Shown: positions 1,513-20,075 of the stretch, piece by piece | Numbering within the stretch: the stretch's first letter is position 1 | Layout: the number at the start of each line of letters is the position of its first letter | Origin: a virus | Lineage: Duplodnaviria > Heunggongvirae > Uroviricota > Caudoviricetes | Length of the DNA stretch: 23,140 nt | IMG/VR virus record: IMGVR_UViG_2869924733_000002 | Reading direction: 5' to 3' (one strand) | Translations under genes and position numbers: made by a program | Notes under the pieces: generated by a model | Seen by the model: only the letters and a program-made list of their open reading frames with translations | Told to the model about the DNA's origin: nothing | Database searches by the model: none

Positions 1513-1738
1513 CTTATTGATTTTTGGGATAATAGGAACAATACACATAGGCGATAAGCTTTGTTTTTGTTGCCTTTTTTATTGTTCATTTTTTATAGAT
1601 ACCCCCAAAAGTACCCCCATATCTTTTTCCGCCCCTGAAATTTGGTTGTTATTCATACAGCATATCAGGCGGTAACGCTCTCCCTTTAACCCACTTATTG
1701 TATGATAGTGCTATCCCACAATAAGGAATCAGCCAGCC

Positions 1739-2098
1739 ATGAGAATGACCAGTCGCAAAAAAGAGATACTTAGCTACTTTGAACCGGATAACCTCGAATG
1801 GGTGACTGGTGAGATTGGTGCGCCGCCGTTCGATGTGTCGGGTGTGGCCTACCTGCTTCATGGCATGGTGTCGTTCGATAAGCGTCACCAGCTCGAATCA
1901 ACCCGGCGCACACTGGAAAGCATGGTTGCTGGTGGACTGCTTGAGCGGGTGACAGTGTATGAATCGCGCCAGATACGGCGCGGCGGTGATACTAACGCAA
2001 CGGTCGTGCGCTACGGTTTACCCGGTCAGTGCGCTGTTATGCGCGATACTGGCGGCGCTGACAACGCAATATCAGGTGAATACATGCGGGTCAGTTAA
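1739..2098 (+). CDS. Hypothetical protein (119 aa)
   Basis: ORF with an AGGA-type Shine-Dalgarno upstream (ataaggaatcagccagccATG) and a protein-like composition. Its 3' end overlaps the convergent gene 2091..2633 by 8 bp. No family recognised. Confidence 0.5.
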   Translation: MRMTSRKKEILSYFEPDNLEWVTGEIGAPPFDVSGVAYLLHGMVSFDKRHQLESTRRTLESMVAGGLLERVTVYESRQIRRGGDTNATVVRYGLPGQCAVMRDTGGADNAISGEYMRVS

Positions 2099-2633
2099 TA
2101 GCCTGCAATCTGTCGTTGATGCGGCTCAGGTCGTAAACCCGGCGTTCAATATCCAGCATCAGGAAATTGTGGATCTCGGCCTGCTCAGGATTATCAGACT
2201 CTCTGGCCTGTAATAGCAATTCATTGTAACCATGCAAGCCGCCTGAGTTTTCCGCCGGGGTGGTGCCTTTCCCACGCAGGCAGCTAATGGGCTGATTACT
2301 CGTATCGTGTGTTTGCTTCTCCAGCACAATGACGCAATCCCACCAGTCGCCAAAGTCATACGTGTAAACCAGCTTGTCACCCTCATTCTGGAGCGCCGCC
2401 CATAGTGGCGTGATTGCCGCGTTACCCATGCTTTCATCCTCACCCCATACGCGATACTCGCTACCTGGATCACCTTTACGCCCTTTCTCGAACATATACA
2501 GGTGTTCGTCATTCCAGCCAAAAGCTAACTGGATCACGGCATGAAGTTTACTAAAGGGGATTTGCTCTGGAACCAGCACACGCCGCCATATAGGTGGTTT
2601 GCTGTCTCGGATGGTTATCTTTAGCTGGTACAT
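2091..2633 (-). CDS. pRiA4b ORF-3-like family protein (plasmid/IS passenger protein of unknown function)
   Basis: 180-aa ORF with the recalled signature of this family (KITIRDSKPPIWRRVLVP...YTYDFGDWWDCVIVLE). Confidence 0.7.
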   Translation of the reverse strand: MYQLKITIRDSKPPIWRRVLVPEQIPFSKLHAVIQLAFGWNDEHLYMFEKGRKGDPGSEYRVWGEDESMGNAAITPLWAALQNEGDKLVYTYDFGDWWDCVIVLEKQTHDTSNQPISCLRGKGTTPAENSGGLHGYNELLLQARESDNPEQAEIHNFLMLDIERRVYDLSRINDRLQAIN

Positions 2634-2753
2634 GCAAATCCTGAATAAATGCGAATCGGAAGGATAACGATACTGACGTACTCACAATTCTGTAAAGGTG
2701 AATAAAGGAAATTTGCTTAATACGCATAAGTTACATGTGGAATAATCCCATAT

Positions 2754-2939
2754 CTACCTGCGCGGCGCTGGCTTCTTCCACTGGTAGGCAGGTGCTCGCA
2801 TCATTTCGCGGAACCTGTCGCGCCGGGCTATATCGGCATTAACTGATCGTTCTATCTCCCGTTGATCTGCCTGTGTAAGCTGGTGGCCTCCGTGCTCAAG
2901 TTTGGCGATGGTCAATAAGGCTATTTCGCGTGGTGTCAT
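2754..2939 (-). CDS. Small hypothetical protein (61 aa), paralog of 3750..3968
   Basis: MTPREIALLTIAKLEHGGHQLT... shares an almost identical N-terminal block with the product of 3750..3968 (TPREIELLTIAKLEHGGHQLS). GAGGG-type SD upstream. Function unknown. Confidence 0.55.
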   Translation of the reverse strand: MTPREIALLTIAKLEHGGHQLTQADQREIERSVNADIARRDRFREMMRAPAYQWKKPAPRR

Positions 2940-3236
2940 ACGTCATACCCTCTGGAAGGATGAAACACGCCCGGATTAAATTTCATTTTTCGCGGGTATA
3001 AAAAAACGATGGGGCGGGCAGTCCCGGATAGTCAGGGCTGTAGAGATTTGACTACCCCCTCCCCACTGGATTCAGGTTACTGCTATTCCGTTAAGCGCTG
3101 CTTACGGGGATAGCTGCGTTGTGATTTTGACCATTCAGGTCGCCGCTATTTCCTCACCGATTGGGTGCTACGCGCGCGCGTACTTGTCCCGAAATACCAG
3201 AAACCGCCAGCCAGAGGATGATTTCCCTCTGGTGGT

Positions 3237-3518
3237 CTACCTTTGCCTCTTGCCGCCATTTAACCGGAAGGCGTTACCGTTCGGTTGCGCTATCCCCATG
3301 CGGTGTTGCGTTTCGGTAACAGCTTTATGCAGGTCGCCAAATTCCTCAACCTTCACGGGCGGGCGCTTCACGTTCTCCAGACACGTTTCACGGCGGCGCT
3401 TTATCCATTCCCGATCATCGTCCTCGGTGCATAACAGCATGACTTCCATCCATCGTGCGGCAGCTCTCCGGTATAGCCCTTTTGACTCCAGCTCTTCAGC
3501 TTTCCTGTCCCTTATCAT
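3237..3518 (-). CDS. PerC-family transcriptional activator-like protein (93 aa)
   Basis: N-terminal block KAEELESKGLYRRAAARWMEVM matches the recalled PerC/Pch-family signature. Assignment is from memory of the family motif. Confidence 0.5.
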   Translation of the reverse strand: MIRDRKAEELESKGLYRRAAARWMEVMLLCTEDDDREWIKRRRETCLENVKRPPVKVEEFGDLHKAVTETQHRMGIAQPNGNAFRLNGGKRQR

Positions 3519-3554
3519 TTCTGCCTCTCAGATTATATAGATAAGCAAAAAGGT

Positions 3555-3675
3555 GTTGGTTCAGTTGGTTCAGTTGGTTCAATTTGTAAAGAGTATTGTT
3601 TTTAAAAGAATTATTCGCAAAAAGTGAACCAACACACCCCATTTTTGAACCAACAAAAAGAGGCCGTGAACCAAC
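3555..3675. repeat. Iteron cluster: GTTGGTTCA x3 in tandem plus three inverted copies (TGAACCAAC) at 21-bp spacing
   Basis: Tandem 9-mers at 3555-3563, 3564-3572, 3573-3581. Inverted copies at 3625-3633, 3646-3654, 3667-3675, each 21 bp apart. The same module is present in reverse orientation at 13139-13249. Confidence 0.8.
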
Positions 3676-3749
3676 ACGCCGTTTAAAAACCGCTAATTAT
3701 GAGGGACATCCACCAGCACAGGGCTTGTCTAGTGCTGGTTAGGTGCTGC

Positions 3750-3968
3750 TCACCGCGCACGGAGCGGCGCTGGTTTGCTCCAGCGATATGCGGGGCTGGT
3801 CATCATTTCGCGGTACCGCCTGGCTATTACAGGGCCCTCTGCCAGCTGGCGCCTTAATTCCCGCAGTTCTGCCGGGCTGAGCTGGTGGCCGCCATGCTCC
3901 AGCTTGGCAATGGTCAGCAGCTCGATTTCTCGTGGTGTCATGGATTCCCCTCTGATGGTGATCGGCAT
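3750..3968 (-). CDS. Small hypothetical protein (about 62-72 aa), paralog of 2754..2939
   Basis: Track ORF MPITIRGESMTPREIELLTIAKLEHGGHQLS...; the true start may be the internal Met at MTPREIELL. Confidence 0.55.
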   Translation of the reverse strand: MPITIRGESMTPREIELLTIAKLEHGGHQLSPAELRELRRQLAEGPVIARRYREMMTSPAYRWSKPAPLRAR

Positions 3969-4107
3969 TATATTGCTAGCCAGGGTGATTCTTCACTGGC
4001 CAGAGCCGTTGTGCGTGAAGTCTATGCGTGAACTCCATATGCTATGTGTTAAGTTACAGCTCAAAATGTCCTGTTCCGGTGGTAACTTTTTGGTAAACAG
4101 CGTTTTG

Positions 4108-4143
4108 GTGGATACCAACATGGATACCTCGCTTTTGGATACC
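4108..4143 (+). promoter_or_regulatory. Three direct repeats of TGGATACC upstream of the AlpA-like gene (putative operator)
   Basis: TGGATACC at 4108-4115, 4121-4128 and 4136-4143, 50-85 bp upstream of the ATG at 4193, in the divergent region between 3750..3968 and 4193..4378. Confidence 0.35.
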
Positions 4144-4192
4144 ACCCAAAGCCAGATTGTCACTATGCTTAATCTAAAGCAGAGGAGCCTCT

Positions 4193-4378
4193 ATGCGCCT
4201 TATCAAATTAAGCGAAGTCATGCTCAGAACGGGCTTCAAGAAAACGGCAATCTACTCATGGGTTAAGACGGGCACGTTTCCACAGCCAGTTAAAATTGGT
4301 AGATCAGCTAGATGGTCGCTTGAGGAGGTTGAAGCTTGGATCCAGAACAAACTTGATTCGCGGGCTGGCAACCAATGA
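4193..4378 (+). CDS. alpA: AlpA-family phage transcriptional regulator / excisionase-like protein
   Basis: 61 aa, MRLIKLSEVMLRTGFKKTAIYSWVKTGTFPQPVKIGRSARWSLEEVEAWI, the typical AlpA helix-turn-helix signature. SD AGAGGAG just upstream. Confidence 0.85.
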   Translation: MRLIKLSEVMLRTGFKKTAIYSWVKTGTFPQPVKIGRSARWSLEEVEAWIQNKLDSRAGNQ

Positions 4379-5342
4379 TTAGCTTTAATATCGAGTGGTG
4401 GATAGTCCATGGACAAGCTGATGGGCGCACTCGACGAAAACGATGCGCCAGGCGGACTGTGTCGCTCATAAACCGGGAGTTGGCCAGAGGACTTAGTTGT
4501 CCTTTGCAATTCTGCAGGTTCGCACGTGAAAGTAGCCAAAACCCTGCGAACCTGAGTGCAAACCTGCAACTGCGAACCACTGAGGTGGCCTCTCATAGCT
4601 GGTGGTCATACTGGATATTAATCAGGCCTGCCACAACCATAACAATCCATAACAGACGCATCGCACCAACAATTACTAATAGGTCCGCTCGCAACACTAA
4701 TTTTGACTAAGCCTGAACGCAATGCTCAGAAAGAACGAAGAATGGAATGAATCGTACCATCATGTTGCTCCATGATTTTTACGTTCAAGACAGTTGCTTA
4801 ATCTCGCCTCGCAATTCAGCCCCCTTGCCGTTATCGAGAAGTCTTTCTCCTTACGGTTAATGCTATCGGTCTTCATATTACCAGCAGCATACGCCATCCG
4901 ATTATTTCGATGCTACGCGCGCGTACTTGTCGCAAAATACCAGGCAAAGGCCAGATTCAGAACGTCGTGATAACCACCAGTACAACATGAGAGGTCATGT
5001 AACGCGATTTATCACACCAGATACATGTGATTGGTGTACCCGCATAAAACATCGTCATAGCGCGTCCTGTGCGCATATACGCCGATAATCAACACATCAC
5101 CACCACTCTGTCTCATGTAGAGAACAGTTTTATGGTATCCCCCCGCCATCGTGTGCATACTGGTCGGACGTAGTTGCAAAATTTTTTGCAACTGATACCC
5201 CTCGCGCGCGTACTTGTCTCGAAATTGGTGTTTTGCTGTGGCAGTGATATCAGAAAAATCTTCCTGTTTCACATAAAGCGGATATGCGCGTACTGTAACG
5301 GCCCCATCAACGGGGATCGGATTTGAAATCCCGACCCAAGCT

Positions 5343-5762
5343 ATGTACCAAATGCCATGTCTTGGATATATGATGATTGCCATTCTAAACAAAGCTAAAG
5401 GGAGGGTTGGTGTGAATGCTCAGGCTGTCATCATGGTTTTCCTTGGTCTGATTGTCGCAAAACTATATCCAGACTGGTGGAAAGGGGCATTAGCAACTGT
5501 CGCCATCTATTTGCTTTTATCCGTCGTTAAGCGATCGTTCGTTAAGACCGTAAATCAAGCAAAACGTTTCTCATTTAAGAATTTAATAAACTATATTACT
5601 GGGCTTATTTTTTGCCTTTCAATTTTGATCGCCTCAGCTTTTTTGCCCGTATCAATAGCTAATTTTTTTGGCGCACCATATGAGGTAGGTTATCTATTCT
5701 CTGTTTTTTGTCTTGTTCTTTCCCTTCTTTACCTATGGATGAGAGCAAAGAACAAAAATTAG
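5343..5762 (+). CDS. Small polytopic membrane protein, AT-rich (candidate superinfection-exclusion or immunity protein)
   Basis: Three to four long hydrophobic segments (VIMVFLGLIVAKL, LATVAIYLLLSVV, ITGLIFCLSILIASAFLPV, LFSVFCLVLSLLYLW). Likely true start is the in-frame GTG at 5412, 5 nt after GGAGGG at 5401-5406. Convergent with the end of the large operon. Confidence 0.55.
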   Translation: MYQMPCLGYMMIAILNKAKGRVGVNAQAVIMVFLGLIVAKLYPDWWKGALATVAIYLLLSVVKRSFVKTVNQAKRFSFKNLINYITGLIFCLSILIASAFLPVSIANFFGAPYEVGYLFSVFCLVLSLLYLWMRAKNKN

Positions 5763-5780: not shown

Positions 5781-7879
5781 TTATTGAGCTTCTTTTTGTG
5801 ATGCCTGTGCGACTCTGGTGAGCGATTGTGTGACCGTACTGATCGCTCTGTCATATGCTGTGCTACCTTTTGGCGTATTTGCCAGACGTAACAAGGCATT
5901 TCGTATAACAGGGCTTTCGTATGCCTTCGCTGCTCCGCCTACGGCACCAGCAGCAGGAACAACAAACGCAGCCGTTTTTAGCATCCCCGCTAATACTGCT
6001 GCGTTTATGATGCCACCACCAACTAACAATCCATAAAGCTGCTGACCATTTAAGTTTTGAACGTTCGCTTTTGCCGCGTGTCTTGTATCGTTGAGGTATT
6101 TAATAACGCCGTCCAGTTCCTTTCCATGTACGCCTTTAAAGAAAGTTGCTGATTGCTTCCTGTTCCGGTGTAACGCATTAATAAACTTCTCAACACTGAT
6201 ATTTCCAGACGGATCAGTCGCCTTATCTACAGCATTCTGAACTATGGCTGCTCGTGCGTTTTGCCTACCATTGTCATCCAGAAGCCTGTAAAGCTGAGAA
6301 CGTTCTGATGGGCTTTGGCTAAAAACGAGTTTTGTTACATCCTCAGGCGTGGCCTTGCCGCTGGCTATTGCCTTTTGAACGCGCGTTCTTCCCATCATGT
6401 CATTGAATTTAGACCATGAGCGATCAACCCTTGCCATATTAATGGCTTCGTCTGCTCCAAGATTTTTGGCTACGGCTTTTTTCATATCCGCCGTATATGC
6501 CTTGTAGATAATATCGCTGGCTTTCTGGAGCGTATCTTTATCAACAGTGTCAGATGACGCCATAAATCGCTTTCGAAGATCGGTTCTGTTTTCCCTCGCC
6601 AGACGCAGGTCATTTGGTCCGCTGGTGATATCGTCTTTAAATTGCTGCAAGACTTTTACCGCGGCTCTATCCTGAGATTTGCCCGGGCGGCTTAACACGG
6701 CAATCTGATTGTCGATAGCTTTTACCGTGTTTGAGAGATCGACAGGGGTATCCCCCATAGCGTCAATTATGCGGTTATATCGCTTTCCTGCTGCCTCAAT
6801 GAATTTTTGTTGCCCTTTAGTCGCAGATTCATAAAGCTGTTTATCAGAAATGCCACCCAGACCATCGCTAAATGTTCTGACTAAATTTTCTCGTGCTTGT
6901 TGTTGATTCAGCCGATTCTTACCGGTTCCAAAAAAAGGAACTCTTTCGCCTAATGTCTGAGCCTGACTCTGCATAAAGGTTTTATCTTTCAGCATGTCAC
7001 TGGTCATTAACGGCAGATTTCTTTCCGATGCAAAGTCGACAGCAGCCTTTGCTTCAGGCGACATATCACCACGAACAGCCCTCGAAACCGCACTCGCTGT
7101 ATTTTCCAGCCCCTTACCAATACCACCAATGCCAGCAGAAATTACCGTTTGTAACGGATCAATATCTTCTCCACCAGCAAGGCTGGTGGCTCCCTGTAGT
7201 GCTAAATCTGTAGCTGCTGATTTTCCTATAGCACCAAGCACCGTTCCAGCCCTGCCCACTGGTGTAAACGCCAACGCATTAGCAAGAAACGAAGTCAGGT
7301 CTTGCGGTGATAAACCCGGCTTGTTCAGGGCATAATCACCTGATGGCAGAGAAACGATAGTATTCCCCTTCTCATCCTGCCTTAATGTCGCCCCCATTCC
7401 CTGAAGAATCTTTTCCTGAGACGCGTCAGAGCCGAAAAGTTGAGACCATCCAGCCTTTAGGGCATCCATGCTTAGTGAGTTCAATTCTGGGGCAGAGGTG
7501 ACATTTTGCAGTCTCTCCATCTCTGGAGTCATTCGGCTTTCGCCTGTTATAGCATCGCGCATCGCAGCCCCAAGACTGGCTCCCTGTTCTGCTGAACGCT
7601 CAAGCCCCTCTCTTTGCTGAGTAGCTAACTTTGCATACCCTGACGCAAGAGAATTATCAGATGATGTATGTTGAATATTTTGAGTTGCTGATTGGGATCG
7701 GTCTATTTCATTCGTTGATGGTAGTGGATAGGCAGCATAAAAAGCCTGCTTAGCCTGCTCTACACTTTCTCCGGCTTGCGGGGCAACGACTTCATTGAAG
7801 TATTGCTCCTGAGCCTGCGCTTTTTGTTCTGGTGCTAACGCCTGATACTGTGGAGAGGCGATAACATCTTTCCATGCTT
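5781..7879 (-). pseudogene. Large alpha-helical protein (about 701 aa when reconstructed), cut from its start codon by an IS insertion; DNA-ejection/internal-virion-protein-like (tentative)
   Basis: Track ORF 5781..7562 stays open upstream to 7879. Removing the IS (7882-8797) and one TA copy joins it to ATG GC at 8800-8804, giving MAKAWKDVIASPQYQ... in frame with a TAATG overlap to the upstream gene. Has a hydrophobic Gly/Ala-rich segment near the C-terminus. Confidence 0.6.
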
Positions 7880-7941
7880 TAGGCTGTGTCCCTTAATCAT
7901 CTGAGCTATAGTAACTGTCTGTTTACACAACATATTGAACT

Positions 7942-8391
7942 ATGGCTCGCTACGACCTTCCCGATGAGGCATGGACCATCATCAAGCCCCTGTTACCTCC
8001 TGAACCCGCCACACCACGGGCCGGACGCCCATGGGCTGAGCACCGTAAAATCATCAATGGCATGTTCTGGGTGTTATGTTCCGGTGCACCATGGCGCGAT
8101 TTACCCGAACGATATGGGTCATGGAAAACTGTTTATAACCGCTTTAACCGATGGTCAAAGTCAGGCGTGATTAATATTATTTTCAACAGGTTGCTTTCGC
8201 TACTTGATGCAAACGGCTTTATTGACTGGTCTGCCACCGCGCTGGATGGCAGTAATATCCGGGCGCTGAAATGTGCCGCCGGTGCTCAAAAAAACATCCC
8301 GATATCGACGGAGATAATGGGCCGGGTCGCTCTCGCGGCGGTTTTGGCACCAAAATCCATCTGGCAACAGACGGAAGTGGCCTCCCGTTAA
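7942..8391 (+). CDS. IS5-family transposase OrfA (N-terminal part)
   Basis: MARYDLPDEAWTIIKPLLPP... is the N-terminal domain typical of two-ORF IS5-family transposases. Overlaps OrfB in the -1 frame. Confidence 0.8.
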   Translation: MARYDLPDEAWTIIKPLLPPEPATPRAGRPWAEHRKIINGMFWVLCSGAPWRDLPERYGSWKTVYNRFNRWSKSGVINIIFNRLLSLLDANGFIDWSATALDGSNIRALKCAAGAQKNIPISTEIMGRVALAAVLAPKSIWQQTEVASR

Positions 8392-8786
8392 ATATCGTGC
8401 TAAGCCCCGGACAAGCTCATGAAAGCCAGTTCGCGCAACGACTTCTGGACGGGATTGGCGTTCAGCGTCAGAACGGCAGCATGAAACGCCGTGGACATGC
8501 GGTACTGGCTGATAAAGCGTATTCAGGGCGCGCATTGCGCAACGAGCTGAAAAATAACGGTATAAAGGCAGTAATCCCCCGAAAGTCAAATGAGAAAATG
8601 GCATCGGATGGACGTGCACAGCTTGATCGTGATGCGTACTGCAATCGTAATGTCGTTGAACGGTGCTTTGGGCGGCTGAAAGAATATCGCCGCATCGCCA
8701 CGCGTTACGACAAAACGGCGAGAAATTACCTGGCGATGGTGAAACTGGGCTGCATCCGACTCTTTTATCAACGCTTACGTAATTAA
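8271..8786 (+). CDS. IS5-family transposase OrfB (DDE domain); probably expressed as an OrfAB fusion by -1 frameshift
   Basis: DDE-type motifs (GGFGTKIHLATDGSGLP..., DKAYSG, VERCFGRLKEYRRIATRYDK). An A7 run at 8288-8294 lies in the OrfA/OrfB overlap. Confidence 0.8.
   Translation: MCRRCSKKHPDIDGDNGPGRSRGGFGTKIHLATDGSGLPLNIVLSPGQAHESQFAQRLLDGIGVQRQNGSMKRRGHAVLADKAYSGRALRNELKNNGIKAVIPRKSNEKMASDGRAQLDRDAYCNRNVVERCFGRLKEYRRIATRYDKTARNYLAMVKLGCIRLFYQRLRN
8288..8294 (+). other. Candidate programmed -1 ribosomal frameshift heptamer (AAAAAAA) in the IS5-family transposase
   Basis: OrfA reads caa aaa aac; OrfB reads tca aaa aaa cat, shifted by -1 over the same A-run. Confidence 0.5.
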
Positions 8787-9887
8787 GGGACACAGCCTAG
8801 CCATTAATCACCCCATAGTGAAGAAAAGTTACTGCTGGCTGCTGGCTGTGATACCTGCTCAGATTGCGGCAATGTCTGCGACGAAGAAGAAGTTCCTCTG
8901 TCAACTGCTGAAATAACCCGCAAAGCATCATAAGCTCGACCAGAAGCAGCTTTCAGCGAATTGAACTGGTTTTCCATCTTCCGGCGCTTGGTATCAATGG
9001 TTTTTGTGGAGTCGCCAGGCTGAGGGAAATACATTTGATAATATTTTGACATTTCAGCAGGTGCGATAGCTGCCCCTGTTTCCTGACGGAGTATTGCCAT
9101 TATTGCGTCATTAGCATTAACAACGTATTGCTGCTCTGTTGGGCTGAGCGTTAAGTTAGCCAGCGTCCCATTACCCAAAGCATTATTAATGATCGCCACT
9201 CGCTGTGGGCTAAGCTGGTCTTTCAGTGTATCTATTGAATCAAGAGCATCCCTAACCCTGTATGCAAATCCAGCAGCTTTTTTAGCCCCTTCTGGCGACT
9301 TTTCCATGATCTTTTGGGCTGTTGGCAAAGCTATTGGACGAAACCCATCTCCAGATATTGGCTGGTTTAGTTTTCCCTGCTCTTCACTTCCGTCTGTGTA
9401 GTATTTTGTGACAGTGCCATCATCGTTTTCTCTAACACTCATTAATTTTTTGGCGTTTGTATTAATTCCAGCCGCTGCCGCAAATGCCGCCGCCCCCTCT
9501 GGATCCGCCTTTAACATTTGAGCGTACTGATTGTAATTCTGCATTGCTGCTGTTGGTGCATATGCTGACGTTAACGCATTTGCTCGGCTAATATCCTGCC
9601 CTCTCGCCTGAAGTGCTTCGCCAGCCTGATTGCTGCGGATTGTCTCTGCCAACTTGCCACGCTCAATATCCCGACCTTCCATTTGATCTTTGATATCGAA
9701 ATACTTCTCATGACCGAGAGAAAACAGTGCCATACTACCAGCAAGCCGCTGGAATCCCTGTGGATCATTAACATGCATTTCGGCAACAGACTCAGGAGAA
9801 ATTCCCAAGCGACGCATTTCATCTTCGTTATCTGCTATGAATTTTCCAAATGCCCCAGTTCCGAGCGAAGATGCGATTTGAGCACTA

Positions 9888-11040
9888 AATAGCTGCGCTT
9901 AATACCGCTACACTTTTGCCAGTCCATGTTTGCCTCCGGGGAATGGGCTGACGGTTTCCATAAAATGGCGAACTTTTTTCAACAGTTGCCACATTGAGCG
10001 GCACTGATGATTACGCGTTATTGTGTCGTGAAGTGCCTGCCATAGCCGTTCAACATGATTCACCCATGGCGAGTAAACCGGCTGATAAATGACCCTGAAC
10101 TTCGGGTTCTCCTTCAGCCAGCTCTGTGTTTCCCGGCTTTTGTGGATAATGTAGTTGTCCACGATCAGCGTGATGGTTTTCGCCCGACGGTATGTCGCTT
10201 TAAGCCGCTTCAGCAGGCTGATGAACAGCGCCGAACTTTTGCTGTTGCCGCCCACATAGCTGACTTTACCTGTCCCGCTGTGCAGCGCTCCGGCCAGATA
10301 ATATTTTTCATTCTGTCCCGGCGTGACCACCCGTTTTTGCTGTCCGCGCAGTTGCCAGTCCGCACCGATTTTGGGATGAAGATGGATATCCACTTCATCT
10401 TCATAAAAGACCGGATGCTCTGCGCTGCATTCGTCCAGTGCTTTATGGATTGCTGCCATCTTTTCATCTTTATGCGGGTCACGGATACGCAGAGTTGGCG
10501 CAGCCCTTCGCCACACAATCCCCGCAGACGGCAACCAGCGGCGAACGGTTCCGGCATTTAACTGGCAACCGGTTATCTCATTGATTTTTATTGCCAGCAG
10601 TTCTGTACTCCAGCGTGAACGCTGGTAGCCAAAGTCGCCGGGAGAATGTTTTACCAGCTCACGTAACAGTGTGCAGATATGCTCAAACGGCCAGCGACGG
10701 GCACGCCCGGCAGGTAATGATTTCAGTCCCTCAACACCCGACTGCGTGAACCAGTTAATCCAGCGTCCAACAGAGGAACGGGCGCAGCAGAGCGTTCTGG
10801 CAACGTCGCTGACACGGTCGCCCCGGTGCAGCATCAGCATGGCAGTCAGTCTGCGGGCATAATTTTTATCGTGTGTTTTATGGATGGCTTTCTGCATCAG
10901 GCGTCGTTCGTCACGGGAAATTGGTGCTATGATCGGCATTGCTCAGTCCGGTTGGTGATTTGTTTTGATTTGGCGATTGATCAGATCGCACAATCCGGGC
11001 TAAGTTCCCTCAAAATGATCTACTATTCCGCGCAGCTATT
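9888..11040 (-). mobile_element. IS630 (1153 bp) inserted at a CTAG target with TA duplication
   Basis: Terminal inverted repeats: aatagctgcgc at 9888-9898 and its reverse complement gcgcagctatt at 11030-11040. TA at 9886-9887 and 11041-11042. Length is exactly 1153 bp, matching the recalled IS630 size. Confidence 0.9.
9908..10939 (-). CDS. IS630-family transposase (343 aa)
   Basis: Full-length 343-aa ORF inside the IS630 boundaries, recognised as the Tc1/mariner-like IS630 transposase. Confidence 0.9.
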   Translation of the reverse strand: MPIIAPISRDERRLMQKAIHKTHDKNYARRLTAMLMLHRGDRVSDVARTLCCARSSVGRWINWFTQSGVEGLKSLPAGRARRWPFEHICTLLRELVKHSPGDFGYQRSRWSTELLAIKINEITGCQLNAGTVRRWLPSAGIVWRRAAPTLRIRDPHKDEKMAAIHKALDECSAEHPVFYEDEVDIHLHPKIGADWQLRGQQKRVVTPGQNEKYYLAGALHSGTGKVSYVGGNSKSSALFISLLKRLKATYRRAKTITLIVDNYIIHKSRETQSWLKENPKFRVIYQPVYSPWVNHVERLWQALHDTITRNHQCRSMWQLLKKVRHFMETVSPFPGGKHGLAKV

Positions 11041-11379
11041 TAGTCGCAAGATGACCAATAGAATTTCTCTGGTCGTCATCAATAAAGCCCATCCCTTTCT
11101 GAACGCTTTCAAATTCTTCTGGATACTCAGAAATAAGACTGCGCATTTTGTTTCTGTCTCCAGACTCAAAAGCCCCGGCATATGCTTTCTGAAACTCTGC
11201 TTTACGCTGTTGTTGACGTGCCTGCTGATTAATCTCAGCAACGCCTCTTAGCCCCTGTAGCGCCATTAAACCTACGTTTGGGTGCTGCTGATACTGCACA
11301 GGCTGAGGAACGGAAGAACGAGGAGCATTATCATTTTGCGGTGCCATGCTAGGCAGCCCGCCAAGTTGCCATGTCGCCA

Positions 11380-12057
11380 TTAGAATCCAAGCCCCCCAAC
11401 AAGACCAATAAGCCCACCACCAATAGCCCCGGCGACATTACCTATACCCGGAACAACGGAACCAAGTTGCGCACCCGCTAAAGCGCCTGATGCCGCCCCA
11501 CCAATACCACGCGCAAGACTGGATGGCTGCTGCGCCTGACCTGCACGAATAGCGCCAAGCCCCTGCAAGAGTTGCCCGGTATTATTGGCGTAGTTTTGCC
11601 CTGCTGTTGCCTGCCCTGATGCCGCATTCATCCCGACATTTAGCAGGTTTCCATAATTTTGCATTTGCCCACTGAGCCAATTGTTATAAAGCATGGGCGC
11701 AATGGAAGATAACTGGTTACTGGTAGCTGTTGAGCCAAGCCCCCCGGTAGCTTCTGCTGAGACAAGGTTCTGATAACGGGCCTGATCTGCCTGTGTTTTA
11801 TATAAACCAGAACCAAAGAAATCATTCGCGGCTTTATTCTGCCCTTCCAGAGTCATCAGTCCTTGCAGTTGTTGTAAAGCAGGCAATCCGACTTCTGCAT
11901 ACGGCTTGAGATTATTCATCACCGTATTCCACTGCTCGCGCTGCAAATCAATTGCCTGCTGCTGGGCCTTCGCCTGAGCTTTAGAGGCACCACCATCACC
12001 GCCTTTTTCGTATACGGCACGATTGAGATGTTTATGAGCTATATGGGTAATTAACAT
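11380..12057 (-). CDS. Hypothetical protein (225 aa) with Gly/Ala-rich glycine-zipper C-terminus; ejection-protein-like (tentative)
   Basis: C-terminal ...GIGGAASGALAGAQLGSVVPGIGNVAGAIGGGLIGLVGGLGF. Stop overlaps the next start (TAATG); start overlaps the upstream gene by 7 nt. Confidence 0.65.
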   Translation of the reverse strand: MLITHIAHKHLNRAVYEKGGDGGASKAQAKAQQQAIDLQREQWNTVMNNLKPYAEVGLPALQQLQGLMTLEGQNKAANDFFGSGLYKTQADQARYQNLVSAEATGGLGSTATSNQLSSIAPMLYNNWLSGQMQNYGNLLNVGMNAASGQATAGQNYANNTGQLLQGLGAIRAGQAQQPSSLARGIGGAASGALAGAQLGSVVPGIGNVAGAIGGGLIGLVGGLGF

Positions 12058-12512
12058 TCGCTGAATTCCTTATATTGTTGCCGAGTTAACTGATAAAGCG
12101 TTACGCCGACGGGTTTACCACATCTGATATAAGCATCATCAAGGTGACCAACACGGGTAGCGCCAAGCAAACGGATAATTGCCCGTCCATATTTCGTGGT
12201 GTCAGGAACCATAGTGATGCTGTTAAGGAATGGTGAGTTTTCGAGAAGCCATTTGCAGAATAATCGATGCCCTTGCAGTGCATATTCACCACGGAATCCG
12301 GGGTCGTACACCGCATGGCATTCAACAACGCTATGCCAGAAGTTACGCACTTCATGAACGCCAGCCAGCACTAATCCTTCGTAGATGCCGAGATATACCG
12401 CATCAGGCTTGATGTAGTACGTGTGCCCCGGCTCAACAATATTTTCGGTATTGCCTGGCTCGTTAAGAAAGGCCTGTAATCGCACAGGGTTATCAATAAA
12501 TTTTAGTTCCAT
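12051..12512 (-). CDS. Hypothetical protein (153 aa), first large gene of the operon
   Basis: ATG at 12512 lies 16 bp after the stop of the 53-aa ORF. Protein-like composition; no family recognised. Confidence 0.6.
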   Translation of the reverse strand: MELKFIDNPVRLQAFLNEPGNTENIVEPGHTYYIKPDAVYLGIYEGLVLAGVHEVRNFWHSVVECHAVYDPGFRGEYALQGHRLFCKWLLENSPFLNSITMVPDTTKYGRAIIRLLGATRVGHLDDAYIRCGKPVGVTLYQLTRQQYKEFSEC

Positions 12513-12528
12513 GCGATGCCATCCATTT

Positions 12529-12690
12529 TCACATACAGCCTGCCAGCGCCTTATCTATTAACCCTCGTGCAATTTCATGCAGAGTTGGCGCTACTCCAAT
12601 TCCTGATTTTTTACGCTGCTCTTCCTGAATTTTCTTTATCGCTTCCATTTGCTTCTCACTTATCAATACCGGCTTTACTGAAATAGCCAT
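12529..12690 (-). CDS. Small protein (53 aa), possible ribbon-helix-helix-type regulator
   Basis: Not in the ORF track (shorter than 60 aa). ATG at 12690 is preceded by AAGGGGG. Translation MAISVKPVLISEKQMEAIKKIQEEQRKKSGIGVAPTLHEIARGLIDKALAGCM has a short N-terminal strand followed by helices. Fold assignment is inference. Confidence 0.4.
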   Translation of the reverse strand: MAISVKPVLISEKQMEAIKKIQEEQRKKSGIGVAPTLHEIARGLIDKALAGCM

Positions 12691-13138
12691 AACGCCCCCT
12701 TATAACTGTATAAAACAACAGTTATTATAGTTTCACAAATCGCAATATTCATCATCGTAATTGCAGAATATGAAACAAATAGCACAAAAAAATGCCACCG
12801 CTCAGTAGCTGGTGGCGTCGTTCTGTGTGTCAGGTTTTGACAGGTTTTTTATGGACTCTAAAAACTATATTTATGGTGTCGCATTACTCTTCACGGCAGG
12901 CGCTTTTCAGTTCTGCCCTTGCTTCTGGCTCCATTGGTAATTTGATTCGCGATCAGCTATGCGGATGGTTTGCTGAACAGGCATAACAACTTCTCAGAGG
13001 CTGTTTTTTGAACTACGAAAATTTCGTAGTGCTCACTTTCAAAAACGTCACGCCCTTGTACACAGGATTTTACGAAAGTCTCGTAAAACACTCTCTGATG
13101 CCAGCCAGGTGTTGTGCGCATCAATTCAGTCACATTGT

Positions 13139-13249
13139 GTTGGTTCAAAATACCGTGTTGTTGGTTCAGTGTTGGTTCAATAAAAAGAATAAAATCCTTA
13201 TAAAACAATACCATTTACAAATTGAACCAACTGAACCAACTGAACCAAC
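13139..13249. repeat. Iteron cluster immediately 3' of the primase-helicase gene (crr/ori-like)
   Basis: GTTGGTTCA at 13139-13147, 13160-13168, 13171-13179, then TGAACCAAC x3 in tandem at 13223-13249. Reverse complement of the module at 3555-3675, including an identical core of about 45 bp. Confidence 0.8.
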
Positions 13250-13274
13250 ACCTTTTCTACGCACATGAAGAAGC

Positions 13275-16034
13275 TCATTCTTCAGATGAGTTATAATCTC
13301 CTGGCTGGTAATTGAGTACATAAACGTTTATTTGTCGTCCCTGAATACGTGGTGATTTTCTTTGGTATCCACGACCGCTGTTTGGTGGGGTTAGCATCCC
13401 GGCTTTTTTCAACACTTCAGCAAACTGTTTTGCGTTGAAACCACATGCGATCTCCTTTTCAAATGTGGCCGGGAATGTGTAGAAAATCATTGGGCTTTCG
13501 TCATGTTCTCCACGCTGACGGTATCCGGCTAAATCTTTGATGGGCAAATCTGCCGGGCTGTATGGAAATGGTGCAAAACGGCTAAGCCCATAGGCATTAA
13601 GAAATGCCTCCGTTTGTTCAATAATCTGCTGATGTTCTTTGTTACCTGTGCCGAACTCGCGCAACCATGCGTTATAGCTGTGCTGTATCGCATCACGGCA
13701 TGTCTGAGCATCCCAGCCTGTTACAACCTCGCCTAACAGCAATGCGGCCTCCAGAATGGCAAATCGCGCGGCTACACGGTGAACCTGCTCACCATAATCG
13801 GATGGGATCAGGTTTCTCCATCTGCTTTCGCAATCACGAACGGTTTTAATAGCCTGTTGCTGGTGGTCTGCCAGCCATTTAATCCACTCACGCCCGGCTG
13901 CGCCGTGGTGATGCTGGTAAGCGTCTTTCAGTGCGTCTGCGTGCTGTTTTCCGTTCTGGTAATCGTGAAAGCGTACTGCTTTACTCAACGGAATATTCAG
14001 CAGTCGCACCAGTTGCCCGGCTTTGGTTTTTCGCCCGGAAGTAGCGATAAATGTTTCTAAATCCATTTCTCCGGTGCTGATTGCCACTGTACGCCAGCGT
14101 TTTAGATCCCGGTTTCCACCATCTTTAGCGCCTTGCAGTTTCCCTACACCGTTAAATAACGCATAGGCAGACTGTGAAACGCTGACAGGATCAGCGCCCT
14201 GACCAACTTCATCAAGCGGCATTAGTCCGTCATTGTGGGCGGCGGCCTCATTTGCCAGCCCCAGCGCGGTTCCGTACCACGTCAGCCGCAGTAAATCAGG
14301 GTTGCCGTATAAGCTGCTCGCCACGTTTGCCGTGGTGGTCTTACCTGCGCTCGACTGCTCATAGAAATGAATGCCGAACCCGTCAGCGCCCACCAGCCCA
14401 ATCAATGGCGCTGCCAGTGCTGCGCCGATCCCGGTCATCATTGAATAGTTACCAAAGGCCAGACGCGCCACGTTATCACGCCAGCTTTTCGCGCTCCCTG
14501 AGACGGTATATCCGGCTGCGGCTGAGCTTCTCCCGCTGAACAGCACAGGATTTTCAGGTGTTCCGATGATTTCCCCATCAGGCATGATGTACGCTCCGCA
14601 TTGCCAGCCAGTGGCATGAGCAACACGCCACAATTCACGAGAGCCACTGCGTTGTAGCCAGTCTGCCAGTATTGCTCTGAGGCTGCTTTTGGTCGTGACA
14701 TTTACCCCACCAGCTTTAAGTGTGCGCCATCCTTCACGTTCACCAATATCAGCCAGTGGAATGGCAGCGGTTGTCGGCGTTTCAGAACCAAACGACAGCC
14801 AGCGAAGAATGAGATACTGGTCTTTATCGTCTCTGCCAGTACCGATAACGCTTAACGGAGAACATAACCAGCTTTCGTTATTGATGATTTCTCCACTCTG
14901 GCTGTCAGCTCTCGGAGATACCCAATAAATACCATCCTCGCGGCTTTCTATTCTTGGTTTCAGTGGGTCGGTATCCATAACCTTAAAATCGCTTCCCTCA
15001 ATGGTCTGTGGCTCCTGTTTCACGCCATTACCCTGTGGTTGGTACATTGACTTATTGAACGCTTCTGTGGCGCATTTAATGCCGTGTTTTTGGTGGTAAT
15101 CATTCCAGTCTGCTTTGTGATCTGTCGGGGGTAATGCCACCCATCCAGAAACAGATAAAGCTGCTTTTTCTGCTGCTATTCTCCCCGTGTTTTGTCTTCC
15201 TTCGCTGTGGTCGTTATCCGCAGCAATGATGATTTGTGCTGAAGGAAATTTATCCCGCAGTACCTGGGCGACATATAACAGGTTCCCGGCATCAATCGCC
15301 GCCACTGTCAGCGCCTCTGGACGAATTAAATGGGCAGATAATGCCGTTGCCAGCCCTTCTGCGATTAAGATGCTCTGTGTTGTTTCTGGCGCGTTTATGG
15401 CGTGATATGCCCCCCGCTTTGCTGAACCTGTCAGGAGTCTTTTTTCACCATGTGATGTAATAGTCTGTGCTGCTGTGACTGCGCCGGATTTATCCACCAG
15501 CGCCAGCAACAGAGATCCATCGGGCAACACGGGGAATGTAAAATCACCTACCCCTTTCGCAACCAGATAATCAGATTTGCCGTTTACAGCCTTTCTGCGC
15601 ATGTCATCAAACTGACGGGAAAACGTATCCCGTCTTTGTTGTTCGTCCTTCTCTGCCCTTTTCAGGCGCTCCTGTTCGCGTCGCTGGCGCTCGGTTTCCA
15701 GTTGTTCCCGTTTCTGGCTGGTGGCTTCTGGTGTTTCCGTTGTCCGGTAATCAATACCCAGAACATCAGCGGCAAGAAGCGCCGCCTCTGTTGTGTCGCA
15801 GTTATTTACGCGTTTAATTAAATCCAGCCCATCACCAGCGCCGCACTGATTACAGATGAAGCTACCGCGCCCGTTGTCATCGAACCGGAATCGATCTTTG
15901 CCCCCACATGCAGGGCAGGGAGCATGACGGCGCGGAGAGTCAGGGACATTTATGTTCAGGCAGCCCAGCACATGAGGCCAGTTGTTTTCAGACGCACTGA
16001 TAACCTGACGGATAAGATCAATGTTTCGCATCAC
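13275..16034 (-). CDS. P4 alpha-like bifunctional DNA primase-helicase
   Basis: 919 aa. N-terminal Cys-rich zinc-binding motif (CPACGGKDRF...CNQCG), primase-like acidic motif (IIIAADNDHSEG), then a P-loop (EQSSAGKTT) in the helicase part. Start is GTG at 16034 or ATG at 16031. Confidence 0.9.
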   Translation of the reverse strand: MMRNIDLIRQVISASENNWPHVLGCLNINVPDSPRRHAPCPACGGKDRFRFDDNGRGSFICNQCGAGDGLDLIKRVNNCDTTEAALLAADVLGIDYRTTETPEATSQKREQLETERQRREQERLKRAEKDEQQRRDTFSRQFDDMRRKAVNGKSDYLVAKGVGDFTFPVLPDGSLLLALVDKSGAVTAAQTITSHGEKRLLTGSAKRGAYHAINAPETTQSILIAEGLATALSAHLIRPEALTVAAIDAGNLLYVAQVLRDKFPSAQIIIAADNDHSEGRQNTGRIAAEKAALSVSGWVALPPTDHKADWNDYHQKHGIKCATEAFNKSMYQPQGNGVKQEPQTIEGSDFKVMDTDPLKPRIESREDGIYWVSPRADSQSGEIINNESWLCSPLSVIGTGRDDKDQYLILRWLSFGSETPTTAAIPLADIGEREGWRTLKAGGVNVTTKSSLRAILADWLQRSGSRELWRVAHATGWQCGAYIMPDGEIIGTPENPVLFSGRSSAAAGYTVSGSAKSWRDNVARLAFGNYSMMTGIGAALAAPLIGLVGADGFGIHFYEQSSAGKTTTANVASSLYGNPDLLRLTWYGTALGLANEAAAHNDGLMPLDEVGQGADPVSVSQSAYALFNGVGKLQGAKDGGNRDLKRWRTVAISTGEMDLETFIATSGRKTKAGQLVRLLNIPLSKAVRFHDYQNGKQHADALKDAYQHHHGAAGREWIKWLADHQQQAIKTVRDCESRWRNLIPSDYGEQVHRVAARFAILEAALLLGEVVTGWDAQTCRDAIQHSYNAWLREFGTGNKEHQQIIEQTEAFLNAYGLSRFAPFPYSPADLPIKDLAGYRQRGEHDESPMIFYTFPATFEKEIACGFNAKQFAEVLKKAGMLTPPNSGRGYQRKSPRIQGRQINVYVLNYQPGDYNSSEE

Positions 16035-16389
16035 CGTACCCCACGTGGTCTATAGCGTTTGCGATATGGCTAACCAGCATCTGCCACTTGGTTATTCCGT
16101 AATCAGTCAGCATGCCATCATTGTTTAGCCACATATCAAATTCAGCGGTTGTCGCAAGTTTCCACTTATCGCCGTGGACAGTCCTCATTGCTGGGTACAT
16201 GAATGCGCAAATCAGATCACAAACATCTGACGGCTTCAGAGATGTAGTAATGGTGCGTCCCTCTGGCGTCTGAATTGCCATTTTCTCTTCACCAGTAGAA
16301 TGAAGGTTATGAATCCACACAGCACCAGCAATCTTTGCCACCTGCTCTCCGATTGCGGAGCTAAGCGCCATTTCTGCATTTTCACGCAT
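16018..16389 (-). CDS. Hypothetical protein (123 aa)
   Basis: Strong SD (GGGAGG) before the ATG at 16389. Overlaps the primase start. Confidence 0.6.
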   Translation of the reverse strand: MRENAEMALSSAIGEQVAKIAGAVWIHNLHSTGEEKMAIQTPEGRTITTSLKPSDVCDLICAFMYPAMRTVHGDKWKLATTAEFDMWLNNDGMLTDYGITKWQMLVSHIANAIDHVGYGDAKH

Positions 16390-16723
16390 GAGAACCTCCC
16401 GCTACAGTTGCGCCCATGTCATTAACCATGCTTTGCCATATCTCACGCCCGACGTCAGTCAATCCGTCCTTAGTGACGCAACGCTCAAGAAGCTCGATCC
16501 CCACGGTTTCCCACTGCGGGTAGAACACTTTCATGGCTGCCAGTGTGTAGCTATCGATCAGGCTGCGAACGCCTTTTACTCCATTAACGATTTCCACACG
16601 TACGGCCTCGCCGTCCGCATCAACCATGAAATAGTCCCCGCCGCTGGTGGAGGTAATGTGGTTATACAGTGCCGACGCATACTTATTTGCCAGCGCATTC
16701 AGTCGGAAATTTTTAGTAATCAT
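16382..16723 (-). CDS. Hypothetical protein (113 aa)
   Basis: SD GAGGATGGAG before the ATG at 16723. Overlaps the downstream start by 8 nt. Confidence 0.6.
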   Translation of the reverse strand: MITKNFRLNALANKYASALYNHITSTSGGDYFMVDADGEAVRVEIVNGVKGVRSLIDSYTLAAMKVFYPQWETVGIELLERCVTKDGLTDVGREIWQSMVNDMGATVAGGSHA

Positions 16724-16733
16724 GGCTCCATCC

Positions 16734-17336
16734 TCAGTGCGTCACTGGTTCCGCTGGCATGCCGTTTTCATTCAGTTCAGCTATAAAGCTGTTGTGAAGT
16801 TCAGCAAGCGTTTCACGACCAAATGGAGTCAGTGCTCCTTGTTCCACATCCATCATGGCTCTGTAGAAAATGATGGCGCGTTCTGTGCCAGACTCGATGC
16901 CAAAACGTTCTATCATCGCTCCCTCAATGTTGTTTGCCATAGCGAGGCGCTCTGCTACTGGATACAGCGGCATGGCGACGATGCCGTTGGAATAAACAGC
17001 CACTTCGGAAGGATTGCCAGTATCATCAATGATGCTGACAGTGCCGTTTTCCTCTCTCATTTCCAGCATGAATACTGTTGCGATCAGCCATCTCCACATA
17101 ATGACGTTATGCTGTGATGTGTAATCGAAATATCCCTGGTTGCCGCCATCGGCAATAGCGAGATGTATTGACATACCTTCATCTGGTTTATCGTCATAAT
17201 CCCCGGCATCCAGACGATTTACGGCATCAATATATGAGACGGCCTCAACGCGTTCTGTCATGCCATCGTTGCTGCGGTACATGATGTTTACGCCGTCAGG
17301 CGTTGCTTCTGTATGGAAAGTTAAGAAATTATTCAT
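16734..17336 (-). CDS. Hypothetical protein (200 aa; track ORF 16734..17441 trimmed to the internal ATG)
   Basis: The ATG at 17336 (MNNFLTFHTE...) has an SD-like AGGCGAGG and avoids overlap with the upstream gene. The longer track start lacks an SD. Confidence 0.5.
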   Translation of the reverse strand: MNNFLTFHTEATPDGVNIMYRSNDGMTERVEAVSYIDAVNRLDAGDYDDKPDEGMSIHLAIADGGNQGYFDYTSQHNVIMWRWLIATVFMLEMREENGTVSIIDDTGNPSEVAVYSNGIVAMPLYPVAERLAMANNIEGAMIERFGIESGTERAIIFYRAMMDVEQGALTPFGRETLAELHNSFIAELNENGMPAEPVTH

Positions 17337-17550
17337 GTTTCGCCTCGCCTGAATGATTCTGTAACTCATATTTGCCCAACAATTCGTCCGCTTCCTGAAT
17401 AGCTTCTGGTACGCCATTGAGCAGTGACATAACCGCGCCAATCATTAACTTGTCTCTGTTGCTGGGGCTGGCCCCTTCAAGCCAGAACCCTAAAACAGTC
17501 TGAACCTGTTCGATGCGACATTGCGCTTCAATGAGCTGGATGTTGGTCAT
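17329..17550 (-). CDS. Small hypothetical protein (73 aa)
   Basis: SD GGAGAG before the ATG. Overlaps its neighbours by a few nt on both sides. Confidence 0.5.
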   Translation of the reverse strand: MTNIQLIEAQCRIEQVQTVLGFWLEGASPSNRDKLMIGAVMSLLNGVPEAIQEADELLGKYELQNHSGEAKHE

Positions 17551-17810
17551 TTCGCACTCTCCACATCGATTAAACCGATATCTATCAGGGAGGTAACTTT
17601 TTGTAGCCAGCTATTGATTACTGTCGCCTGTTCCCCGCCCACCGAGGGAACAATCTCATTCATCACATGAACCAGACCTGTGCGCGCTCTGGTAAGCCGT
17701 TCAGTCGCGCAATCTGCGGGAGTGAATGTGTCTGGATATGGCTCTTCACGCCCCAGCAATGATTCAATTTCCAGCTCACACGGATGACGATAAATTAAGT
17801 TGATATTCAT
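17547..17810 (-). CDS. Small hypothetical protein (87 aa)
   Basis: SD GGGGGTG before the ATG at 17810. Start overlaps the upstream stop. Confidence 0.5.
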   Translation of the reverse strand: MNINLIYRHPCELEIESLLGREEPYPDTFTPADCATERLTRARTGLVHVMNEIVPSVGGEQATVINSWLQKVTSLIDIGLIDVESAK

Positions 17811-18001
17811 TTTTCACCCCCAAGAATTACCAGCTCGGCACGGGCATCGTTAACCAAAGATGAGCACGCTTTAATCGCATCCACGACATCAGTAGCGTCC
17901 ATTTCTTCAGCCGAAAGACTGACAGCAACCAGGACAGCCGCTGCTTGCTCGATTAATTGAAGTGCGGACGTAAGGCGAGGGGTATTAATTGAGTTATTCA
18001 T
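17807..18001 (-). CDS. Small hypothetical protein (64 aa; track ORF 17807..18058 trimmed to the internal ATG)
   Basis: [23 protein letters not shown]... The ATG at 18001 is preceded by a G-rich SD. Confidence 0.45.
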   Translation of the reverse strand: MNNSINTPRLTSALQLIEQAAAVLVAVSLSAEEMDATDVVDAIKACSSLVNDARAELVILGGEK

Positions 18002-19061
18002 TGGTTGCCCCCGTTTTTCCTGGCATTTCGCCACCTTCCAGCAGGAAATGAACGTCACGAACGGCGAGATCCAATATCGCGAGTAACGCCTTCAGTCTTT
18101 CGTCTCGTGAGGGAGAGTTGCTCACCAGAATGTCGTTAATCACTTCTGTCAGTGTGATGATCTGGCTTGTGCGTTCGAGGGGATCCATATGCACATCGTA
18201 GGTTTTAATCATGTGCCACCTCCATGCGGATACGACCAGCAAAAAAGCAGATGTGATCGCGCACCAGAGAACGGCGAGCATCGCGTTCAGACTCGGCAGC
18301 AATATGATGAATTTTGGCGGTAATTGTCGGGCAATCGCGGCGAACTGCGGCGATAATCCAGATAAATTGCGGTTTTTGGGTAGTGGTAGTAGCCAGCATG
18401 TGGCAGCCTCCTTGTACTGGGAGTTCTTCCCACCACCGGAGCTGCGAAACTCGCTGGTGGTGGACTGAACAGAGTTCGCAGTACCGGCGTACAAGGAAAC
18501 CGGCCAGCCTTTCGGCTGCCCTGTCCAGCCCACCATAATTTTGCAAGCGACGCGGATTATAACCGCATCACTGAAAAAAGTGTGAGTCTGGCTAACGGCA
18601 CAAAAAAAGACGCTCGGCGCGTCATGTGTCGCCTCGTACATTTCCGGGCTGCGAAACCCGGCACCCGTTTTATGAGGTGCCTTATAACCATAAACCGTGT
18701 TGCCGCATAACGGCAAGCTCTTTTTTATGGACTCCGAAAACTCACTATTGGAAGCACCAGATGCACAATACATCGCGCTCATTTCGTTAACGTCGCGCGT
18801 GTGGACGAAGGTTTTTGTGGAGTCACTACGCGAGCAGAGAAAGCCATCTACGACCAGAAATTCTCTGGCGCAGCCGCCGACCTTCTCAACGCTAACACCA
18901 TCGACCGTAATTTCTGACATAGTTAAGGCATCCGCTCCCACCACCAGAAAATGATAAACTTTGCTTGTATCTGCTGTATTAATGCCAGACTTTGCTGTCA
19001 TATTGCTGGATTTTGGCGACATACCAGCCAGTGAAAATATCTTCTTCTGGACGGTTAGCAT
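17994..19061 (-). CDS. Gene with a strong start at 19061; the 355-codon open frame has an ambiguous 3' end (see findings)
   Basis: ATG at 19061 with GGAGGT SD, 1 nt after the upstream stop. The N-terminal 150 or so residues look protein-like. The frame then stays open through a terminator-like hairpin (18601-18623), a structured region and an internal SD+ATG at 18212 (MIKTYDVH..., 72 aa). Confidence 0.4.
18205..18399 (-). CDS. Small hypothetical protein (64 aa) in an alternative frame
   Basis: AAGGAGG sits 7 nt upstream of the ATG at 18399 ([19 protein letters not shown]...). Its stop overlaps the internal ATG at 18212. Confidence 0.4.
   Translation of the reverse strand: MLATTTTQKPQFIWIIAAVRRDCPTITAKIHHIAAESERDARRSLVRDHICFFAGRIRMEVAHD
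18601..18623 (-). terminator. Putative intrinsic terminator or attenuator inside the long open frame
   Basis: Minus strand: GACGC-GCCGA-GCGTC hairpin followed by TTTTTTT. A TGA in another frame sits just before it. Confidence 0.35.
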
Positions 19062-19237
19062 TTGTTAACCTCCGCGAACTCCTTCATGAAGCGCGCCAGC
19101 GGTTGTACGCATGGCGATTGATACCCGTCGCGATAAAACGTCACTCGGTTGTGAGACACGCTTTCGACAGTAACGAGTGCTCCGTGGGCATCCTTGTAGC
19201 GTTTTTGAGGTTGTGGTGTTCCTGTCGGCTTAAACAT
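19055..19237 (-). CDS. Small hypothetical protein (60 aa; track ORF 19055..19324 trimmed to the internal ATG)
   Basis: GGAGGTGG lies 4 nt upstream of the ATG at 19237 (MFKPTGTPQPQKRYKDAHG...). The longer track start would overlap the upstream gene by about 95 nt. Confidence 0.5.
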   Translation of the reverse strand: MFKPTGTPQPQKRYKDAHGALVTVESVSHNRVTFYRDGYQSPCVQPLARFMKEFAEVNKC

Positions 19238-20063: not shown

Positions 20064-20075
20064 TTTCAGTCTCCG

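Follow-up and report, generated by a model that had tools for sequence, protein, structure and literature searches.

The window analysed here, a stretch of 23,140 nucleotides of viral DNA (IMG/VR record IMGVR_UViG_2869924733_000002), carries an insertion sequence (IS) at the head of a long minus-strand open reading frame (ORF) of 593 codons. A first-pass annotation, made from the letters alone, had proposed that the IS separates a 701-aa gene from its start codon. This raises the question of which gene was interrupted, in what kind of element it lies, and whether the 593-aa ORF is still a gene or only the remains of one.

Results and discussion

The interrupted frame and its empty site

On the minus strand the sequence across the insertion reads TAATGGCTA, then the IS, then TAAAGCATGG, with ATG at 8804-8802, GC at 8801-8800 and TA at 8799-8798. 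Excision of 7882-8799 gives ATG GCT AAA GCA TGG..., that is MAKAWKDV..., and 701 open codons in phase with the 593-aa ORF. The proposal that ATG GC, taken across the IS and one TA, rejoins the frame is thus borne out, and the restored sequence has an exact counterpart in E. coli. The ATG and the stop codon of the upstream ORF (8806-8804) overlap at base 8804 to form TAATG, as the first reading had it; the same overlap is found in phage Sf6. The IS had been placed three codons into the 701-aa gene. It does lie in that gene, but the target TA occupies nucleotides 6-7 of the coding sequence, at the border of codons 2 and 3.

Six or more complete E. coli chromosomes contain the empty site, as reconstructed over 1200 bp, at 100% identity, and the reconstruction is covered to 80% or more in 315 of 5,426 complete E. 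coli genomes. In one of these relatives, E. coli CFSAN061761 (L001), PGAP annotates a 701-aa CDS (WP_001585370.1) with a 1-nt overlap with an upstream 473-aa 'phage DNA ejection protein'. When the window was aligned with L001, just two large interruptions appeared, the IS at the gene start, identified below as ISSfl7, and a second IS, of the IS630 type, in the upstream gene. With the occupied site as query (7600-9100), no place in the 5,426 complete E. coli genomes was covered to 80% or more, and the species-representative genomes gave no match for either the insertion junction or the IS end. The features of the locus are collected in Table 1.

Table 1 Features of the interrupted cassette in window coordinates
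Feature	Position	Strand	Comment
ISSfl7-type IS5-family insertion sequence, 916 bp	7882-8797	+	transposase opposite in strand to the interrupted gene
Left terminal inverted repeat, GGCTGTGTCCCTTAAT	7882-7897		16 bp
Right terminal inverted repeat, ATTAAGGGACACAGCC	8782-8797		16 bp
TA target-site duplication, left copy	7880-7881		single TA in the empty site of L001
TA target-site duplication, right copy	8798-8799		
Transposase, 281 aa (predicted)	7942-8786	+	ORFs 7942-8391 and 8271-8786; -1 frameshift at A AAA AAC (8289-8295)
gp16-like gene body, CDS nucleotide 6 to stop	5781-7881	-	start codon gone
Residual 593-aa ORF from internal Met109	5781-7562	-	weak GGGG 5 nt upstream
Orphaned native start	8775-8804	-	Shine-Dalgarno-like GGGGTGA and ATG; 9-codon stub MARLCPLIT, then stop
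gp20-like gene, C-terminal part	8804-9887	-	Pfam Inj_translocase; 100% identical to L001
Callable 337-aa ORF in gp20-like C-terminal part	starts at internal ATG 9817	-	
IS630, 1153 bp	9888-11040	-	TA duplication (flanks 9886-87, 11041-42); 343-aa transposase co-oriented with the operon
gp20-like gene, N-terminal part	11041-11380	-	
gp7-like gene, intact	11380-12057	-	Pfam P22_gp7, E=1.9e-72
gp14-like/DUF2824 gene, intact	12051-12512	-	Pfam DUF2824, E=1.5e-61

The insertion sequence

The inverted repeats of the IS match perfectly for 16 bp; extended to 27 bp so as to take in the flanking TA, they are 85% complementary. Side-by-side comparison of five copies (the window copy and four others) showed TA duplicated in every case at a YTAR target; because all five agree, the ends of the element are fixed and TAG and CTA, which were considered as alternative duplications, are excluded. 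The target used in the interrupted gene was TTAG.

The assignment to the IS5 family made at first reading was upheld by three sources. The NCBIfam profile transpos_IS5_3 (NF033580, cut-off 110 bits) scored 135.2 and 173.3 bits on the two overlapping transposase ORFs, Pfam returned DUF4096 and DDE_Tnp_1, and the window IS shares 99.9% identity with copies annotated by PGAP as 'IS5-like element ISSfl7 family transposase'. Over all 916 bp the ISSfl7 reference copies are 99.2-99.9% identical to it and share its inverted repeats, its TA duplication in YTAR and its frameshifted transposase. PGAP annotates a joined CDS with 'programmed frameshift' at equivalent coordinates in four of them (L014, L016, L017 and L018), and the 281-aa protein is accordingly a product of a predicted -1 frameshift between the two ORFs. 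Programmed -1 frameshifting of a two-ORF transposase is typical of the IS427 group in the ISfinder groupings. The one private substitution of the window copy is a T at 8640, where four others have C, which changes Arg to Cys. In the Y(2)R(3)E(6)K signature of IS4/IS5 transposases, we take the altered residue to be the one directly after the Tyr; this copy may be impaired for transposition.

Copies at 99.2-99.9% identity were found in 13 enteroinvasive-type E. coli records. One related genome holds 32 chromosomal ISSfl7 copies, and the element interrupts many unrelated genes, yfaL and espL1 among them. Shigella accounts for 130 of the 175 plasmid records that match the IS; 139 plasmid records are at least 99% identical to the window copy, again mostly from Shigella and with virulence plasmids as the main setting. 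The copy on pCP301, a plasmid of S. flexneri 2a, is the same element, although its depositors labelled it ISSfl1 ORF1/ORF2. Disruption of genes by ISSfl7 has been reported before, as in fimD::ISSfl7 of S. boydii CIP52-54 (PMC4374849).

The interrupted gene is a P22 gp16 homologue

PHROG 770 ('DNA transfer protein') matched the restored protein with E=9e-155; with the 593-aa ORF the alignment began only at profile position 60. A tblastn search aligned query residues 1-700 with Sf6 gp13, gene 16 of ST64T and the 'DNA injection protein' of phage L (E 1e-75 to 1e-78), and the closest phage homologue was N7 ORF13, with 66% over residues 69-701. The precomputed Pfam tag is PF26808, Phage_P22_gp16. 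A profile search of the 701-aa protein against local copies of Pfam and NCBIfam gave no match, so that the identification rests on PHROGs, tblastn and the precomputed tag. By these homologies the interrupted gene is identified as a homologue of P22 gp16 and Sf6 gp13, the final gene of a gp14-gp7-gp20-gp16 cassette. Full-length homology, the 14-7-20-16 gene order and the overlap with the gene 20 stop are common to the phage genes and the island gene. The P22 and Sf6 genes sit in phages, whereas their homologue here sits in a capsid-less island, is mosaic and is interrupted. In P22, gp16 is packaged in virions, is ejected and helps DNA to cross the inner membrane (PMC10461980).

The first 40 residues of Sf6 gp13 are identical to those of the restored protein and its gene has the same stop/start overlap, GATTAATGGCT. 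N7 ORF13 carries a different N-terminal module ahead of the conserved AAMRDA(I/V)TGESRMTPEMERL block, and the equivalent of Met109 is internal. Comparison with IS-free homologues had been put forward as the check on the native start, and none of those examined begins at Met109; all begin far upstream. The restored protein (5781-8804) is itself a mosaic, residues 1-56 being nearly identical to Sf6 gp13 and residues ~75-701 resembling N7 ORF13 (66%); the DNA for residues 1-56 is ~96% identical to that of Sf6- and HF4s-type phages.

The element that carries the cassette

The genes of the element run in the order integrase, AlpA, AntA, DUF4222, Ash, TOPRIM/DUF927 primase, ejection-protein cassette, HTH, PerC and PRiA4_ORF3, and within the window the island is without capsid, tail or lysis genes. 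Over 1525-5337, 11220-20698 and 21950-23140 (~14.5 kb) it matches EcCIMP1 of E. coli MP1 with 98.4-99.4% identity; the MP1 island has the same gene order, including the DUF2824, gp7-like, gp20-like and gp16-like genes. The window from 1525 to 23140 is therefore assigned to the EcCIMP1 family of phage-inducible chromosomal islands (PICIs), in the thrW/proA-yagU region; backbone and site were judged from the annotations of L001 and L020 together with the identity to EcCIMP1, the tRNA-Thr lying outside the window. In the IS-free relative L001, PerC and PRiA4 have the same protein sequences as in MP1. The window island differs from that of MP1 in two respects. The mosaic segment 5337-11220, which holds the gp16-like gene, most of the gp20-like gene and a 139-aa membrane ORF, belongs to another allele; at the gp16 position MP1 has a 906-aa 'lytic transglycosylase domain' protein. 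The window island also carries two IS insertions.

Kapi1, a P22-like phage, acts as helper for EcCIMP1, inducing and transferring it (ISME J 2025, PMC11773190), and for DUF2824 and the 'DNA transfer' genes its authors only propose packaging or morphogenesis roles (PMC11773190). A search of the literature on phage satellites and ejection proteins found nothing relevant. The P22-type gp14-gp7-gp20-gp16 cassette occupies the position of the packaging genes in other PICIs, and in hundreds of E. coli genomes a capsid-less island of this kind retains intact genes for ejection proteins.

Two further features of the island were noted. A 65-bp inverted repeat is present at 3548-3612 (+) and 13193-13256 (-), the copies being 92% identical; in each, an AT-rich stretch follows three tandem GTTGGTTCA units. 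One copy immediately precedes a small ORF and the ejection-protein operon, and the other points to ORF 3775-4266 and the AlpA-like HTH gene; the island may use the repeat as a common regulated promoter or operator. The 139-aa ORF (5343-5762, +) is hydrophobic, converges on the end of the gp16-like gene, occupies the position of sieA in P22 and had no PHROG match.

A second insertion in the gp20-like gene

An addition to the earlier reading of the locus is that IS630 also interrupts the upstream gp20-like gene, after approximately codon 113. Removal of this IS gives a 473-aa ORF identical to the L001 allele. With 9650-11300 as query, no place in the complete E. coli genomes was covered to 80% or more. 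Genes 20 and 16 of P22 are both required for infectious virions, and truncation of P22 gp20 by 33 residues at its C-terminus already abolishes function (PMC10461980).

Compared with the intact L001 alleles, the restored gp16-like gene has a single synonymous change in 2106 nt and the restored gp20-like gene has no change in 1422 nt, so that both events are dated as recent.

Effect on expression

The frame of the gp16-like gene body is closed by a stop codon 12 nt inside the IS, and from there no in-frame ATG, GTG or TTG occurs before Met109 at 7562, which substantiates the earlier claim that the gene has been cut off from its start. The native start now yields only the stub and the remaining codons are startless until Met109; for this reason the gp16-like gene is interpreted as a null allele, a pseudogene. 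The first reading had also supposed that translation coupled to the upstream gene was probably abolished. Since IS630 splits the gp20-like gene, ribosomes from the native start of that gene could not reach the coupling site, so that coupling would be doubly compromised. The gp16-like and gp20-like genes as they stand in the window are thus most likely both null alleles, with expression presumably lost.

The right IS junction had been suggested as the site for a transcript check. The gene runs from right to left, however, and it is therefore the window-left junction, at 7882, that matters for read-out into the gene body. A standard promoter scan found nothing on the minus strand at the left end of the IS, its overall counts being those expected of shuffled sequence, and no outward sigma-70-like promoter at this end reached 9 of 12 matches. 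With relaxed settings one outward 8/12 site was found (TAAACA-18-GATGAT, 7925-7896, -), no better than background. A terminator-like hairpin on the minus strand (8375-8356) was not used as evidence, because the terminator scan counts likewise match shuffled sequence. Given the 8/12 site and the weak GGGG before Met109, trace synthesis of the 593-aa fragment may occur.

A stronger form of this idea would be that an outward or hybrid promoter of the IS drives an active truncated protein from Met109, one that could, for instance, disturb the ejection machinery of P22-like phages entering the cell. The body of the ORF is indeed intact, with its single synonymous change, and the outward site and the GGGG 5 nt before Met109 would be in keeping with such a reading. 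Recency alone, however, accounts for the intactness, because the gp20-like fragment has likewise accumulated no changes, and the standard promoter scan gave no minus-strand site at the IS end, its overall counts matching the shuffled expectation. Among the 108 residues lost is the 56-residue N-terminal module, shared almost unchanged with Sf6 gp13, and every homologue examined has Met109 at an internal position. Moreover, the same 593-aa remnant has been produced elsewhere by unrelated IS66-family insertions and deletions, which suggests decay rather than design. An active truncated product is accordingly considered very unlikely.

Disruptions in other strains

These other events come from genomes of the E. 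coli group, in which the gp16-like gene was independently disrupted somewhere in its first 108 codons. IS66-family insertions (L002, L005 and L007) lie at two sites, at L001 coordinates ~9308-9317 and ~9392-9399, and two deletions (L003 and L004) fuse the body of the gene to upstream island genes. They were retrieved with the 593-aa ORF as query, so that only events of this kind were retrievable; the idea of an insertion hot spot in the first 108 codons was rejected on this ground. The disruptions are read from these sequences as decay of the locus.

They also bear on whether the double IS inactivation was selected, loss of the module benefiting the host or the island, for example by removal of a toxic membrane-active protein or by a changed interplay with the helper phage. 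Two independent IS insertions in neighbouring genes of one cassette would be in keeping with selection, as would the further independent disruptions in other strains. The latter, however, came from the 593-aa query and carry its ascertainment bias, and against them stand the 315 complete E. coli genomes in which the junction is intact. The 32 ISSfl7 copies of one related genome, with many unrelated genes hit, are typical of drift in IS-expanded lineages. Selection for loss of the module is for these reasons thought highly improbable.

Reality and spread of the occupied allele

Three short contigs (L011-L013, 1137-1231 bp) are bounded by the IS630 end and the right end of ISSfl7, and both junctions are exact in them. 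On these independent contigs the ISSfl7 junction reads TAATGGCTA followed by GGCTGTGTCCC, and one double-junction contig is present in at least 20 samples. The junction sequence of the occupied allele is TGATTAATGGCTAGGCTGTGTCCC. As both junctions recur on short contigs from many samples, the occupied allele is real and marks a sequenced lineage. IS elements are a common cause of misassembly, but a collapsed or misplaced repeat can practically be dismissed as the origin of the junction in view of the clean TA duplication, the exact match to the empty site and the identical junctions on independent short-read contigs from many samples.

Conclusions

The preferred reading, to which we give a probability of about 90%, is that a recent ISSfl7 insertion produced a null allele of the gp16-like gene, which together with the IS630 insertion represents neutral decay. 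ISSfl7, a known element of Shigella and enteroinvasive E. coli, would have transposed into TTAG at nucleotides 6-7 of the gene, leaving the ribosome-binding site and ATG on a stub of 9 codons with its stop within the IS. For the other 699 codons there is no in-frame start until Met109, giving a null allele and a pseudogene. With the gp20-like gene broken separately by IS630, the ejection-protein module would be dead in this lineage. Both insertions are most likely the result of neutral, IS-driven decay in an IS-rich genome that is probably Shigella-like; its IS content, together with the absence of the allele from the complete genomes labelled E. coli and from the species-representative genomes, would point to one labelled Shigella.

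Larger claims could be built on the cassette. It might be a module that gives hijacked P22-like virions the island's own DNA-delivery proteins, or that disturbs the helper phage, with the present lineage a double knock-out; alternatively, the 593-aa remnant might be expressed and exclude P22-like phages in a dominant-negative manner. Such claims must be regarded as distinctly unlikely. ISSfl7, the gp16 family, the EcCIMP1-type island and this kind of gene loss are all known already, and what the locus holds is most likely an ordinary null allele.

For annotation, the locus is to be recorded as one 701-aa pseudogene and not as a 593-aa gene. The double ISSfl7/IS630 junction, being common to many isolates, is usable as a lineage marker. 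By itself the insertion is of little weight, since it adds another pseudogene made by an IS to a probably Shigella-like genome that is rich in them. The lineage could nevertheless serve as a ready-made knock-out of the gp20-like and gp16-like genes of an EcCIMP1-type island and so help to test the role of ejection proteins in a phage-parasitic island.
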